Origin: a virus
Taxonomy: Duplodnaviria; Heunggongvirae; Uroviricota; Caudoviricetes
Strand: one strand, 5' to 3'
Virus record (IMG/VR): IMGVR_UViG_2695420744_000014
DNA length: 4,814 nt
Each line of letters opens with the position of its first letter. Position 1 is the first letter of the stretch. The position numbers were made by a program, and so were the translations under genes. Below are positions 322 through 4,814 of the stretch, one piece after another. The notes under the pieces are model-generated. The model worked only from the letters and a program-made list of their open reading frames with translations. It did no database searches and was not told the origin of the DNA.

Positions 322-1068
322 TTACTTCACAACCCTCATATTGCTGACATTTGGACGCCAGCTATCCCAGTTAAACGTCACCCATCGACCACCGTTCATG
401 GTCATGCGGTCCATAATCCTCTCACCAAGAAGCGTACTCATTGCGGCATGATTCAGGTTTGTTAACATCCCGACACTGCACAGTGATGCTGTCCGGCGAT
501 CAATTATCTGGTGCAATACCACCTGCTCGTTTTTCGTCTCCCGCTGAACGCCTATTTCATCCAGGACCAGCAAATCAACCCCGCAAAGCTCCTGTAAAAA
601 TTTTTCCCCGGATTTGCCGTTGTCGTAGCTGTCATGCAACACGCTCATGACGTCAGACACGGTGACGATAATCACGCTGCGCCCCTTCACCATCAGCCGG
701 TTGCCCATCGCCGCTGCAAGGTGATTTTTCCCGGTGCCGGTTTTACCGCTGAACACAAAATTCGTGCACCCGGTCATCAGTTCGTCAGCTATGGATTTGG
801 CCTGGCTCAGCGCGTATTTTTGCCCGTCGTTCTGCACCTGATAATTTGCAAACGAGCATTTGCTGTGCAGAGGCTGGATGCCCGAACGATTCAGGATTTT
901 TTCCACCCGCAACTGGCGATTCTGGCGGTTAATCTCCTCGCTGCGTTTTCGTCCTTCAGCAAGTTGCCATTCCCGCCACTCCTCCACCGTCCGGTACGGT
1001 GGAACCGACCCCTGTGGTGCAAGTCTGCGAATACGTTCAAGAACCCCAACTGCCGCAATGTTTTTCAT
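322..1068 (-). CDS. DnaC-like AAA+ replicative helicase loader (phage P-equivalent; IstB/DnaC family), 248 aa
   Basis: Full-length ORF; ATG at 1068-1066 lies 6 nt after the stop of the upstream O-like gene. Walker A-like GKTGTGKNHLAAA and Walker B-like LLVLDEIG are present. Strong recalled similarity to E. coli DnaC across the whole length (for example FANYQV, SQAKSIADE, FVFSGKTGTGKNHLAAA, TNLNHAAMSTLLGERIMDRM). Same size and position as Rac-prophage YdaV, but the symbol is left blank because identity was not checked. Confidence 0.9.
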   Translation of the reverse strand: MKNIAAVGVLERIRRLAPQGSVPPYRTVEEWREWQLAEGRKRSEEINRQNRQLRVEKILNRSGIQPLHSKCSFANYQVQNDGQKYALSQAKSIADELMTGCTNFVFSGKTGTGKNHLAAAMGNRLMVKGRSVIIVTVSDVMSVLHDSYDNGKSGEKFLQELCGVDLLVLDEIGVQRETKNEQVVLHQIIDRRTASLCSVGMLTNLNHAAMSTLLGERIMDRMTMNGGRWVTFNWDSWRPNVSNMRVVK

Positions 1069-1074
1069 GACACG

Positions 1075-2007
1075 TCACCCCCTGAATCCCGGCGGTATTT
1101 CAGTGTCCGGTTCAGAAATGTGATTCACGCAACGCTGCGCAGGCGAACGCCCTAGGCGGATAACCAGTTCATCCCATTTTTCCCGGAGTTTTGCCGGACT
1201 CATGATGTTTTTTACCCAGAACGAATCCCGCTGGAGACGCCCAAACATTTCACAAATTTGTCTGTGAGTTCTGCCATCCAGCATCCGCATTGTGCGAACG
1301 TCATTGGCCCATGCTGTCCAGTTGGGTTCTTTCGGTCTAGTGATCTCGCCATCATAGCTGGCCGCCTGCTCGTAAAGACTCACGATTCGTCCCCAGATCC
1401 ACTGTGCGCACACCAAATCTTCCTGACTTCCCCACTGGCGTTTTTTCGCACTGAACACAACCGCGTCAGGGTGTCGGGTTAAAAAATCCTGTTCAGCCGT
1501 CTGCGGGTCCGGTTGCGAAGCGTCCGGACAAGAAGATCTTTTATCTGACGGATCAGGTTTTAATACTGACGGATCGGGGTCAATCATCGCCCCCCTAATC
1601 GGCAGTTTTTTATCAACAGTTGATCCATCAAAATTTGACGGGTCAACCGTTGAGGGGTCATTTTTTGCCGGGCTAATTTTTCTTTTCGGTTTATATGACT
1701 CACGCGCCGCCGCCGCAGCTGCTTCGAGTTTTTCCACATTAAGCCGATAGATATTGCTTACATTACGCCCACCGACCTTACGCTCTTCCTTCGTCAGCCA
1801 GCCCTCTTTCGCCAGTTCTGCAATAGCCGATTTCACTGTGGATTCACTTCTTGCACCGATCTGACGCCGGATAGTTTCAATGGCAGGCCATGACACGCCC
1901 TCGTCATTGCTGTAGTCTGCAAGACGGGCCATAACCGCCACCCTGGATAAGATCATGCCGGTGAAGGCGCACCCTTCCCAGACAAGACCATGAAGCTTGC
2001 TGCTCAT
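1075..2007 (-). CDS. Phage replication initiation protein, lambda O-like architecture: N-terminal winged-helix DNA-binding domain, low-complexity linker, C-terminal domain possibly DnaT-like
   Basis: Long ORF directly upstream of and coupled to the DnaC-like gene. The preferred start is ATG at 2007-2005 (MSSKLHG...), preceded by a GGGGG run with a 4-nt spacer. The ORF track extends to a GTG at 2022, which is less likely. N-terminus has wHTH-like sequence (ETIRRQIGARSESTVKSAIAELAKEGWL); the middle is a poly-Ala and DP/PS-rich linker coinciding with DNA repeats; the C-terminal domain is W-rich. Domain names are inferred from recall. Confidence 0.8.
   Translation of the reverse strand: MSSKLHGLVWEGCAFTGMILSRVAVMARLADYSNDEGVSWPAIETIRRQIGARSESTVKSAIAELAKEGWLTKEERKVGGRNVSNIYRLNVEKLEAAAAAARESYKPKRKISPAKNDPSTVDPSNFDGSTVDKKLPIRGAMIDPDPSVLKPDPSDKRSSCPDASQPDPQTAEQDFLTRHPDAVVFSAKKRQWGSQEDLVCAQWIWGRIVSLYEQAASYDGEITRPKEPNWTAWANDVRTMRMLDGRTHRQICEMFGRLQRDSFWVKNIMSPAKLREKWDELVIRLGRSPAQRCVNHISEPDTEIPPGFRG
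1545..1700. repeat. Putative replication origin inside the O-like gene: iteron-like direct and palindromic repeats followed by an AT-rich tract
   Basis: Seen directly. CTGACGGATC(A/G)GG at 1545-1557 and 1566-1578, with related TGACGGGTCA at 1636-1645. Palindromes ATCAACAGTTGAT (1612-1624) and TCAACCGTTGA (1643-1653). GGGGTCA at 1576-1582 and 1654-1660. A T-rich stretch follows at 1658-1700. The repeats encode the DP/PS-rich linker of the initiator, as for ori-lambda inside gene O. Confidence 0.5.
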
Positions 2008-2029: not shown

Positions 2030-2455
2030 TTAGTGCATCACCACAGCATTCCCTGCCGGGCCGCCGCGATTCATCTGGTCATACAAAACAACCGCTGACG
2101 CAACAAAATCATCGACATCCTTCACCAGCCGATCCCTCCGTTCGACGATCTCACGGTAATATTCAGAACTGTGGCTGCGCATACGGGCCACCAGCAAAGG
2201 CGGCATCGCCTTTTCGATCGCCGGTAACAGAGCCTGCATTTTTTCAACAGCATCAGGGGTGTCTTTATCCAGCCAACGGAAAATTTTCTGGGTATTACGG
2301 GCCAGGGCTTCCGGATGGCTGTCGTCGTACAGTTCAGGGAACGTCATCCCCAGTTCGAAATAAGTCCGGGCTATTTCAGCTGCAGGAACTTTCTCACCAT
2401 CAGGGTATGCCCAGGCATTCATCGCCATGCGGATGTGCTCATGTTTGATTTTCAT
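2030..2455 (-). CDS. ydaT: YdaT-family protein (CII-like HTH regulator; reported as toxic when derepressed), 141 aa
   Basis: ATG at 2455-2453, stop TAA at 2032-2030. Its start overlaps the last 17 nt of the upstream Cro-like gene in another frame (translational coupling). Sequence recalled as the YdaT family of Rac / CP-933P prophages. It occupies the cII position between cro-like and O-like genes. Confidence 0.85.
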   Translation of the reverse strand: MKIKHEHIRMAMNAWAYPDGEKVPAAEIARTYFELGMTFPELYDDSHPEALARNTQKIFRWLDKDTPDAVEKMQALLPAIEKAMPPLLVARMRSHSSEYYREIVERRDRLVKDVDDFVASAVVLYDQMNRGGPAGNAVVMH

Positions 2456-2762
2456 GAATCATTTGCCTCTTGATGCTTCGGGTATGATCGTTTTCGTCAT
2501 TTGGTTGCTTCATCGACATATTCTGCGAATAACATGACGAGCGTCGTAAGTATGTCCAATCAACATCAGGACGAAGTTCTTCACACAGGACACCACCTTT
2601 TGTTGCTCGTTCAATCGCAGGACATCTCTCAGCAGGTAACTGACGTACACCTTTGATCCATTGATTTACGCTTGGAGGAGATACACCTAAAAGCCTAGCC
2701 ATTGCTGATTGCCCACCGACAACAGCACAAGCTCGTTTGAATGAATAGTTATCTTTTTTCAT
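2439..2762 (-). CDS. ydaS: YdaS-family Cro-like HTH protein (XRE-type), about 107 aa
   Basis: Preferred start ATG at 2762-2760 (MKKDNYSF...) with SD GGAG (complement of 2771-2774) about 8 nt upstream. The ORF track extends to 2783, but that start would sit inside the predicted promoter. HTH-like segment ACAVVGGQSAMARLLGVSPPSVNQWIKG. First gene downstream of the pR-like promoter, divergent from the repressor. Confidence 0.8.
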   Translation of the reverse strand: MKKDNYSFKRACAVVGGQSAMARLLGVSPPSVNQWIKGVRQLPAERCPAIERATKGGVLCEELRPDVDWTYLRRSSCYSQNMSMKQPNDENDHTRSIKRQMIHENQT

Positions 2763-2789: not shown

Positions 2790-2819
2790 ATATTAGGCTT
2801 AGCCTAATGAAATTGTCAA
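2790..2819 (-). promoter_or_regulatory. pR-like sigma70 promoter for the ydaS-ydaT-replication operon
   Basis: On the minus strand: -35 TTGACA (complement of 2814-2819), 18-nt spacer, -10 TAATAT (complement of 2790-2795). Predicted start near 2783, about 20 nt before the ydaS ATG. Both hexamers overlap operator palindromes. Confidence 0.55.
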
Positions 2820-2886: not shown

Positions 2887-3363
2887 ATGCTTAGTGGTAA
2901 AGACTTAGGCCGAGCGATAGAGCAGGCCATTAACAAAAAAATTGCATCAGGAGCCGTCAAATCAAAGGCGGAAATCGCACGTCATTTCAAAGTCCAACCA
3001 CCATCAATCCATGACTGGATTAAGAAAGGTTCGATAAGTAAAGACAAACTTCCAGAACTATGGCGTTTCTTTTCTGATGTGGTTGGTCCAGAGCATTGGG
3101 GGCTTAACGAATACCCCATACCAACCCCATCCACTTCAGATACAAAAAGTGAACTTTTAGACATAAACAGCCTTTATCAAGCCGCCTCTGATGAAAAAAA
3201 AGCAATTGTGGCTTTCATCTTATCTGGAAATGCTACGGAGCCTAGTTGGGTTGATTATGACGTTCGCGCCTACATTGCCGCAATGGAAATGAAGGTAGCT
3301 AACTATCTGAAAAATCAAGAATCAAAACGGAAAAGCCAGAACATCACCAAGACAGGAACTTAA
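2887..3363 (+). CDS. racR: RacR-like prophage repressor (N-terminal XRE/cI-type HTH, no S24 peptidase domain), 158 aa
   Basis: ATG at 2887 with AGGAG at 2871-2875 (spacer about 11 nt, slightly long); stop TAA at 3361-3363. Divergent from the Cro-like gene and flanked on both sides by the operator palindromes. HTH-like N-terminus (GKDLGRAIEQAINKK...KAEIARHFKVQPPSIHDWIKKG). Length and context match Rac-prophage RacR; identity is from recall. Confidence 0.8.
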   Translation: MLSGKDLGRAIEQAINKKIASGAVKSKAEIARHFKVQPPSIHDWIKKGSISKDKLPELWRFFSDVVGPEHWGLNEYPIPTPSTSDTKSELLDINSLYQAASDEKKAIVAFILSGNATEPSWVDYDVRAYIAAMEMKVANYLKNQESKRKSQNITKTGT

Positions 3364-3437: not shown

Positions 3438-3500
3438 ATTAGGTTGCGCCCAAATTATTAGGCATAGCCTATTGACAAGTAATTAGGCATTTCCTATAGT
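3438..3500 (+). promoter_or_regulatory. pL-like sigma70 promoter with left operator sites, driving plus-strand genes downstream of racR
   Basis: -35 TTGACA at 3472-3477, 17-nt spacer, -10 TATAGT at 3495-3500. Operator-like palindromes ATTAGGCATAGCCTATT (3457-3473) and ATTAGGCATTTCCTATA (3482-3498) overlap the -35 and the spacer/-10; a degenerate third site lies at 3438-3454. The 23-mer TATTAGGCATAGCCTATTGACAA (3456-3478) is an exact inverted copy of 2813-2835. Confidence 0.55.
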
Positions 3501-4439: not shown

Positions 4440-4814
4440 TGATTAAGGAGTTCTCCACGGGTGAGGTGGAGTGCGTGCGCCGGACACGGGTGAGCATCCG
4501 GCACTGACAGTTTACTGAAAGGATATTTCCCTGAAAAGTCAGACCATAACGCGAAAGCGCCCGGCGAGGTAGCTGGTTCATAGATAGCCTGTCGTTAAAT
4601 TTTCGTCGACCGTGCGTTTCCGGTTGTGGCAATCCGCGAAATGGCGCGGCGGTAAGTATGGCGGGGTTATTCCTTCCCCGTTGAGGACACCGAGTTGTCA
4701 GGTTGACCATACGCTTAAGTGACAACCCCGCTGCAACGCCCTCTGTTATCAATTTTCTGGTGACGTTTGGCGGTATCAGTTTTACTCCGTGACTGCTCTG
4801 CCGCCCTTTTTAAA
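4440..4814. other. Structured, GC-richer, apparently non-coding block upstream of the 91-aa gene; possible long 5' leader, ncRNA or REP-like element
   Basis: No credible ORF on either strand. Hairpins read directly: CTCCAC/GTGGAG (4453-4471); GCCGGA/TCCGGC (about 4475-4504); CCGCG/CGCGG (4634-4649); CGGGG/CCCCG (4662-4680); GTTGTCA/TGACAAC (4694-4726). No sigma70 promoter for the 91-aa gene was found inside it. Confidence 0.3.

Follow-up and report, generated by a model that had tools for sequence, protein, structure and literature searches.

The DNA stretch analyzed here (the window; 4,814 nucleotides of the virus record IMGVR_UViG_2695420744_000014) is the immunity and replication region of a Rac-like lambdoid Escherichia coli prophage. 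It carries a gene for an O-like replication initiator, and the repeats inside this gene, which make up a candidate replication origin, are the subject of this study. The window is 100% identical to E. coli chromosomes, e.g., NZ_CP030768, where the prophage adjoins ompW. In the identical prophage, racR, a YdaS-like cro, a YdaT-like cII, a 'helix-turn-helix domain protein' and an 'ATP-binding protein' are annotated, the initiator coding sequence is also annotated by RefSeq, and genes for Q, RusA, an integrase and an exonuclease lie further along. All replication genes of the window are on the minus strand (Table 1). A transcript from the predicted pR-like promoter would cross the cro-like, cII-like, O-like and DnaC-like genes and hence the repeats as well.

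Table 1. Features of the initiator gene and of its neighborhood in the window (pLDDT, predicted local distance difference test score; bp, base pairs).
Feature	Position	Strand	Evidence or remark
O-like replication initiator gene, 310 amino acids, stop codon 1075-1077	1075-2007	-	PHROG 391 'replication initiation O-like', E 6e-116; Pfam HTH_36
N-terminal winged-helix domain, residues 1-104, presumed to bind iterons	1696-2007	-	AlphaFold2 pLDDT 72-89, H-H-H-H-strand-strand; HTH_36
Disordered interdomain linker, residues 105-167, holds all repeats	1507-1695	-	pLDDT <50 over residues 109-167; D-P-S-rich low complexity
Helical C-terminal domain, residues 168-285	1153-1506	-	AlphaFold2; BLASTP versus lambda O
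C-terminal tail, residues 290-310, ...PDTEIPPGFRG	1078-1140	-	similar to the C-terminal end of host DnaT
T-rich tract; its coding strand is A-rich and encodes YKPKRKISPAKN	1660-1699	.	52.5% T, 67.5% A+T, rank 19 of 894 40-mers of the gene by low helix stability
Tandem unit 1, TGACCCCTCA, then ACGGT	1651-1660	-	
Tandem unit 2, TGACCCGTCA, then AATTT	1636-1645	-	15 bp from unit 1
Tandem unit 3, TGATGGATCA, then ACTGT	1621-1630	-	inverted TGATCCATCA; contains GATC
Degenerate fourth unit in register, TGATAAAAAA	1606-1615	-	15 bp from unit 3; read from the sequence
Distal GATC element 1, composite TTGACCCC-GATCCGTCA	1567-1583	-	
Distal GATC element 2, TGATCCGTCA	1546-1555	-	21 bp from element 1
Least stable 40-mer of the O-like gene, candidate DNA-unwinding element	1530-1569	.	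67.5% A+T, z 2.8
DnaC-like helicase loader gene, directly downstream of the initiator gene	322-1068	-	PRK12377, E 1e-152 (NCBIfam)
YdaT-like (cII-like) gene	2030-2455	-	
cro-like gene	2439-2762	-	
pR-like promoter, TTGACA-18-TAATAT	2790-2819	-	consensus match only

The repeat array in the initiator gene

A repeat scan of the window returned ATCTGACGGATCA at 1543, TACTGACGGATCG at 1564 and ATTTGACGGGTCA at 1633, together with words starting GGGGTCA at 1576 and 1654. The common core of these repeats is a near-palindromic 10-mer, TGAY-NNN-TCA. Five such cores lie inside 1546-1660, with starts at 1546, 1567 (one mismatch, 1567-1576), 1621, 1636 and 1651. The pattern TGAYSSNTCA gave seven strand matches in the window, all of them inside 1546-1660, versus 0.38 expected, and seven or more matches occurred in none of 200 shuffles. 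The initial annotation had placed a cluster of direct and palindromic repeats in the part of the O-like gene that encodes the low-complexity linker between two domains, and this was borne out on both counts: the array is far beyond chance, and it falls within the segment (1507-1695) predicted by AlphaFold2 to be disordered.

Since TGA-N4-TCA cores match on both strands, they possess dyad symmetry, which is consistent with binding of an initiator dimer. In the orientation of the gene, the tandem units and the degenerate unit are followed by a 23-bp spacer, the composite TTGACCCC-GATCCGTCA, 11 bp and TGATCCGTCA, and both distal elements share the reading GATCCRTCAG. In frame, the core is read as T-GAY-NNN-TCA and encodes D-x-S. 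Over 16.7 kb of the identical prophage, promoter region included, the motif clustered solely in the linker; no second cluster was found, and one isolated match lies elsewhere. An isolated TGACACGTCA core at 1068-1077, which is outside the stricter pattern, bridges the stop codon of the initiator gene and the start codon of the DnaC-like gene and is probably due to chance.

The number of tandem units differs between alleles. Loci with an identical N-terminal domain were retrieved from IMG/VR, and 80 of 80 diverged in the same way from the window allele from nucleotide 354 of the gene onward. A full-length initiator of 320 amino acids is encoded by 77 of them, while the open reading frames of the other three are shorter or cut. 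In one aligned IMG/VR locus, five tandem units are present versus three in the window allele, which is thus shorter by two units, i.e., 30 bp or 10 amino acids; the gap lies at about window position 1660, between nucleotides 347 and 348 of the gene. As the super-period of the array is 30 bp, the window allele is short by exactly one super-unit. The short allele was also found in several complete E. coli genomes. Tandem Repeats Finder reported the array of the five-unit allele and no array in the window, because the window allele has just three tandem units.

Conservation of the repeats as DNA

Repeats of this kind could be a by-product of a low-complexity linker, i.e., of a 15- or 30-bp coding unit duplicated by slippage, with no cis-acting role of the DNA. 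It would agree with this explanation that the region encodes a disordered linker, and that the unit number changes by a 30-bp step between alleles and from one to six exact cores between species. However, under slippage, different lineages should have fixed different synonymous codons. The codons were compared in 80 loci encoding the N-terminal domain, taken from one-genome-per-species contigs and sharing 49-77% amino acid identity with the N-terminal domain of the window. They come from many genera of the Enterobacterales, such as Erwinia, Edwardsiella, Yersinia, Proteus, Providencia, Gilliamella, the Klebsiella group and Citrobacter, and phages SfII, phiNP and Klebsiella phage 1 LV-2017 were added. 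The IMG/VR scan described above yielded solely N-terminal domains of 100% identity and was of no use for tests of divergence, although it revealed the five-unit allele. In nearly all homologs, the linker contains two to six TGAY-NNN-TCA cores with a 15-bp period, followed by a spacer and two further elements. The wording of the flanks differs by subfamily, with TTGACCCC...TCAAC in the subfamily of the window and TCTGACNCNTCAAAA in that of SfII.

The serine of the linker D-x-S was encoded by TCA in 393 of 434 cases (91%), compared with 15% for serines outside the linker and 20% for D-x-S elsewhere. The serine preceding the aspartate was mostly TCT, the source of the T in TGAY. As a control for common ancestry, 31 conserved positions in the N-terminal domain with four- or six-fold codon degeneracy were inspected; their commonest codon averaged 0.47 (maximum 0.75), and thus synonymous sites are otherwise randomized in this set. 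The central codon of the units varied freely (CCG, GCA, CCA, GCG, GGG, ACG and others), whereas the TGAY and TCA flanks were fixed. The aspartate of the distal elements was GAT in 76 of 76 homologs (element 1) and in 66 of the 66 homologs that have an aspartate there (element 2), so that GATC is fixed at a synonymous site, while the aspartate of the tandem units was GAC in 81%. In addition, when a unit is inverted, its DNA is preserved but the encoded residues are not: GTTGACCCCTCAAC encodes V-D-P-S-T, its reverse complement GTTGAGGGGTCAAC encodes V-E-G-S-T, and unit 3 of the window (D-G-S) is the inverse of a D-P-S unit. Inverted copies that encode different residues fit recognition of duplex DNA and not a requirement of the protein, and the linker would read D-x-S because the sites lie inside an open reading frame.

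Judged by codon choice, the repeats are constrained as DNA beyond coding needs in the 80 homologs, and slippage without a role of the DNA is very improbable. A protein linker retained by homologs that have lost the DNA repeats would have spoken against the initial annotation, and this is not what was observed.

The conserved nucleotides might also belong to an overlapping gene or a structured RNA instead of a DNA site. An open reading frame of 51 amino acids (1584-1739, minus strand, another frame) overlaps the region, and a terminator-like hairpin was called at 1634-1654 on the plus strand. However, alternative frames across the linker were open in only 0-3 of the 80 homologs (three frames) or in 24-30 of them (the other two), no Rfam family was detected in the region, and the hairpin consists of two adjacent inverted units and is at chance level, with one found versus 2.2 expected. 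This explanation is barely credible. An internal promoter or terminator within the repeats was likewise rejected, the chance-level hairpin call being the only indication of it.

Mosaic make-up of the initiator and its repeats

The initiator's C-terminal domain aligned with lambda O by BLASTP (39% identity over 119 amino acids, E 4e-26), whereas no alignment of the N-terminal domain to that of lambda O was obtained in this comparison. A Pfam scan of the initiator returned HTH_36 and a sub-threshold DnaD_N match only, and the Phage_rep_O domain of lambda-type initiators was not among the results. For structure prediction, a further set of homologs, mostly truncated proteins, served solely as alignment depth. 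The nearest solved folds of the N-terminal domain (Foldseek versus the PDB) were dimeric winged helix-turn-helix (wHTH) regulators of the MarR/ArsR/PadR type (E about 4e-3); the matches were generic wHTH folds only, and no replication initiator was among them. Thus, the label 'O-like' holds for the C-terminal domain but not for the N-terminal domain, and the initiator is, by these comparisons, a mosaic in which a lambda-type effector domain is joined to a DNA-binding domain that is not of the lambda type.

A third part is the C-terminal tail, which matched DnaT chains of the PDB with an E-value of about 0.01 (phmmer) and corresponds to positions 159-179 of the NCBIfam DnaT model. These DnaT-like last 21 residues explain why relatives are labeled 'primosomal protein I'. 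The tail is 68% identical to the last 19 amino acids of the otherwise unrelated YdaU of E. coli K-12, and a GFRx tail also terminates many relatives bearing other C-terminal domains. It may represent a portable peptide for docking to DnaB/DnaC; according to a 2026 study of the preprimosome, how DnaT recruits DnaB/DnaC is still unknown (PMC13377028).

Comparison with other phages indicated which part of the protein the repeats accompany. Phage HannyBb shares 86% nucleotide identity with window positions 1082-1542, i.e., the C-terminal domain, and the identity stops at the edge of the repeats. Its N-terminal domain is unrelated, and a different repeat, CATTTTGACCnGATG, is present in 5-6 copies at about 23 bp, followed by three AT-rich repeats of 12 nucleotides and then the shared C-terminal domain. 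At positions 2961-3138 of the HannyBb locus, this O-like initiator thus shows the textbook lambda-like layout. YdaU of K-12 carries four close copies of yet another mid-gene repeat, AAGCAGATGTTCAA. The lambda iterons were recovered by the same repeat search, which served as a positive control, and no TGAY-NNN-TCA motif was present at the loci of lambda, HannyBb and K-12 Rac.

Conversely, the N-terminal domain and the TGAY-NNN-TCA motif occurred together with a lambda-O-like C-terminal domain in 20 loci and with other C-terminal domains in 56; the GFRx tail and a downstream DnaC-like gene were each present in some cases and absent in others. Motif clusters were found solely in the linker in the loci of SfII, phiNP and the Klebsiella phage. 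In these three phages, no DnaC-like or P-like loader gene follows the initiator gene; instead, a gene for a Dam-type or N6-adenine methylase lies close behind it. Most of the 80 genomic homologs also have no DnaC-like gene within 0.8 kb downstream. By this pattern of co-occurrence, the repeats go together with the winged-helix domain at the N-terminus and are not tied to the C-terminal domain. The view of the initial annotation that the repeats differ from the lambda iterons and would represent a distinct origin specificity is supported, as the repeat sequence is different and changes with the type of N-terminal domain.

The candidate origin and its comparison with known systems

The stability of the DNA helix was calculated by a nearest-neighbor scan of 40-mers over the whole initiator gene, and lambda was treated identically. 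In lambda, the scan returned the known A+T-rich region directly after the four iterons (z 3.0, 77.5% A+T). In the window, the minimum at 1530-1569 contains GATC at 1535 and 1551, and a third GATC adjoins at 1572. The least stable 40-mer of the gene was centered 20-40 nucleotides past the first distal element in 67 of 76 homologs (median z 3.0, median A+T 70%). By these profiles, the conserved order is N-terminal domain, iterons, low-stability DNA and C-terminal domain, as in lambda.

The initial annotation had instead assigned the unwinding element to the T-rich tract at 1660-1700. This tract exists, although its T-richness is modest. It is retained only as a lysine-rich stretch in the closest subfamily, is absent from SfII-type relatives, and lies on the flank opposite to the stability minimum of the family; it was thus downgraded and is an unlikely candidate for the main unwinding element. 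The proposed ori-lambda arrangement passes sequence comparison with respect to the iteron layout inside the initiator gene, but its A+T-rich flank had probably been placed on the wrong side. On the plus strand, GATCTTTTATCTG (1535-1547) agrees with the oriC 13-mer consensus GATCTnTTnTTTT at 11 of 13 positions; this may be a coincidence.

Taken together, vegetative replication of this Rac-like lambdoid prophage probably originates in the segment at about 1530-1660, inside its own initiator gene, since the position and dyad symmetry of the sites, the stability minimum beside them and their linkage to the N-terminal domain match the lambdoid precedent. By analogy with lambda O at ori-lambda, P22 and phage L, dimers of the N-terminal domain would bind the palindromic units and build a higher-order nucleoprotein complex. 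This complex, negative supercoiling and pR-driven transcription through the site would lead to opening of 1530-1569, and the lambda-O-like C-terminal domain and the DnaT-like tail would recruit host DnaB via the phage DnaC-like loader encoded next door.

Constraint on the DNA reveals that there is a function, not which one. The elements could be binding sites that serve a purpose apart from initiating replication, such as autoregulation or handcuffing by the initiator or binding of another factor, e.g., Dam/SeqA at the GATC pair, with the origin lying elsewhere in the phage. GATC is enriched in the linkers (10.8 per kb versus 3.2 per kb outside), and a gene for a Dam-type methylase is often found near the O-like gene in relatives. 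However, the four features named above fit the sole lambdoid arrangement with an experimental precedent, and a single motif cluster in 16.7 kb, with none at the promoter region, argues against an operator. Moreover, there is no cluster of DnaA boxes: one TTWTNCACA match was found in the window (1730-1738) versus 0.58 expected, which is within chance, and a DnaA-dependent origin of the oriC type was rejected. A role of these sites apart from initiation is therefore unlikely.

The two distal elements deserve separate consideration. Four GATC sites fall within 90 bp of the window (1535-1625), two of which are invariant at synonymous positions across the family. A tentative proposal, on balance doubtful, is that the GATCCRTCAG pair is not a pair of ordinary iterons but of Dam-methylation-sensitive control sites, the methylation state of which gates origin firing in this family. 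It is based on the invariance of GAT at a synonymous site, on the location of the elements in the least stable DNA of the gene and on the many relatives that have their own Dam-type methylase gene beside the initiator gene. Gating would operate through sequestration of the SeqA type or through methylation-dependent binding or unwinding by the initiator. Methylation-gated firing has precedents in oriC and P1 oriR. Of the features described here, the GATC pair alone might open a new direction, namely methylation control of origin firing.

Several points weigh against an origin at 1530-1660. No published binding, unwinding or origin activity of an initiator was found for this element or for the family of the N-terminal domain, and the wHTH matches of this domain have weak E-values. 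The 80 homologs are related, so that their counts are not independent; the codon control in the N-terminal domain eases this problem and does not remove it. The candidate unwinding segments reach merely 67.5% A+T versus 77.5% in lambda, and, given the differences in spacing and core size (see below), lambda cannot serve as a ready template for the geometry of the complex. Finally, the window allele lacks two units (30 bp) in comparison with the common IMG/VR allele. Small in-frame deletions in the lambda iterons inactivate the origin, as in the lambda ori- mutants r93, r96 and r99, and the origin copy of the window could thus be weakened by its deletion. Three units fall inside the family-wide range of unit number, and 30-bp steps would alter the length of the initiator and leave the protein unharmed. 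In Shiga toxin (Stx) phages, natural variation in iteron number is accompanied by a matching change in initiator length (PMC7466680).

One of the closest analogs is ori-lambda, where dyad-symmetric iterons inside O bind O dimers beside a 40-bp A+T-rich region (PMC5043065). Similarly, the window has repeated dyad-symmetric sites in the linker-encoding part of the initiator gene, an A-rich segment of low stability on the side of the C-terminal domain, a homologous C-terminal domain and a pR-cro-cII-O-loader operon. In contrast to lambda, its N-terminal domain belongs to HTH_36 and has no detectable similarity to that of lambda O, its 10-bp core recurs with a 15-bp period instead of the 18-19 bp ATCCCTCAAAACGAGGGA at 20-24 bp, two invariant GATC elements are added, and the partner is a DnaC-like AAA+ loader and not lambda P.

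In gene 18 of P22 and phage L, mid-gene repeats were inferred to be origins, each O-type initiator having its own repeats (PMC8022706). The six imprecise 11-bp repeats of phage L resemble the window units in size, but their sequence is TGTCCAACGGA, and P22 and L use the DnaB-type helicase gp12 and not a DnaC-like loader (PMC8022706). The Stx phages 933W and P27 have lambda-type origins with six iterons and an initiator that is 13 amino acids longer (PMC7466680). Iteron number and initiator length vary together there, as they do between the window and the common allele (10 amino acids, 30 bp), whereas 933W and P27 possess true lambda-type O proteins and iterons, for which binding was shown by electrophoretic mobility shift assay (EMSA) and footprinting.

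The Rac prophage of K-12 was reported to have an active origin, oriJ (PMC3945230). Its gene order of racR, ydaS, ydaT, initiator and DnaC-like loader (YdaV) is that of the window, and its initiator also has mid-gene repeats. Unlike the window initiator, however, YdaU is a DUF1376 protein that aligns over its last 19 amino acids only and has no TGAY-NNN-TCA. K-12 Rac was rejected as a direct reference, since its initiator is a different protein, and the window would represent a different origin specificity in the same chassis.

In plasmid iteron origins (RepA, RepE, pi), a winged-helix initiator likewise acts on arrayed direct repeats next to an unwinding element; the rep gene itself, however, contains no iterons, and the winged-helix domains of plasmid Rep proteins are in tandem. 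The window initiator gave no sequence match (phmmer) and no fold match (Foldseek versus the PDB) to plasmid Rep proteins.

The principle of an in-gene iteron origin has been textbook knowledge since the lambda work of 1979-81. A lambda-type iteron origin with a new specificity appears well supported by comparison and is unsurprising, and similar origin inferences are routine when lambdoid genomes are annotated (PMC8022706). What appears to be new are the recognition sequence, the 15-bp geometry of the array and the invariant GATC pair in the probable unwinding region. No paper describing an origin or iterons for the HTH_36 N-domain initiator family was found in the literature, among the matches listed in a text search for the repeat 10-mers all were unrelated, and a paper on the 'Eru' replication regions of Stx phages does not treat this type of initiator and its iterons. 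Members of the family have an HTH_36 N-terminal domain, occur in many enterobacterial prophages, including Rac-like, SfII/SfIV-like and Klebsiella ones, and usually carry no label beyond 'helix-turn-helix domain protein' or 'primosomal protein I'. Thus, a widespread family of O-like initiators acquires a probable origin and a testable recognition sequence, which may be of use in prophage replicon typing and in the design of mini-replicons. In general terms, the sequence of a protein linker can be imposed by a DNA site that acts in cis, as the D-x-S repeats, the serines encoded by TCA only and the P/G and T/V exchanges between copies of opposite orientation would all arise from the DNA motif, and statistics of codon choice can distinguish origins from plain low-complexity coding repeats.

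Further features were noted in the surroundings of the initiator gene. The loader gene also matched DnaC PRK07952 (NCBIfam, E 2e-89), Pfam IstB_IS21 and PHROG 50. A 13-bp palindrome, TAGGCnTnGCCTA, occurs in five copies (2794-2806, 2820-2832, 2845-2857, 3459-3471 and 3484-3496), with 11 strand matches versus 0.70 expected, one of which is a weaker sixth site at 2881-2893. Three copies with a spacing of about 25 bp lie between racR and the cro-like gene and overlap the pR-like promoter, while two lie downstream of racR. By their placement, they look like candidate operator sets of the OR and OL type for RacR and the YdaS-like protein. A full-length gene for the small RNA DicF was detected at 4755-4806 on the plus strand (Rfam RF00039, 76.7 bits, E 2.7e-16); downstream of it, just past the edge of the window, dicB is annotated in the identical prophage.

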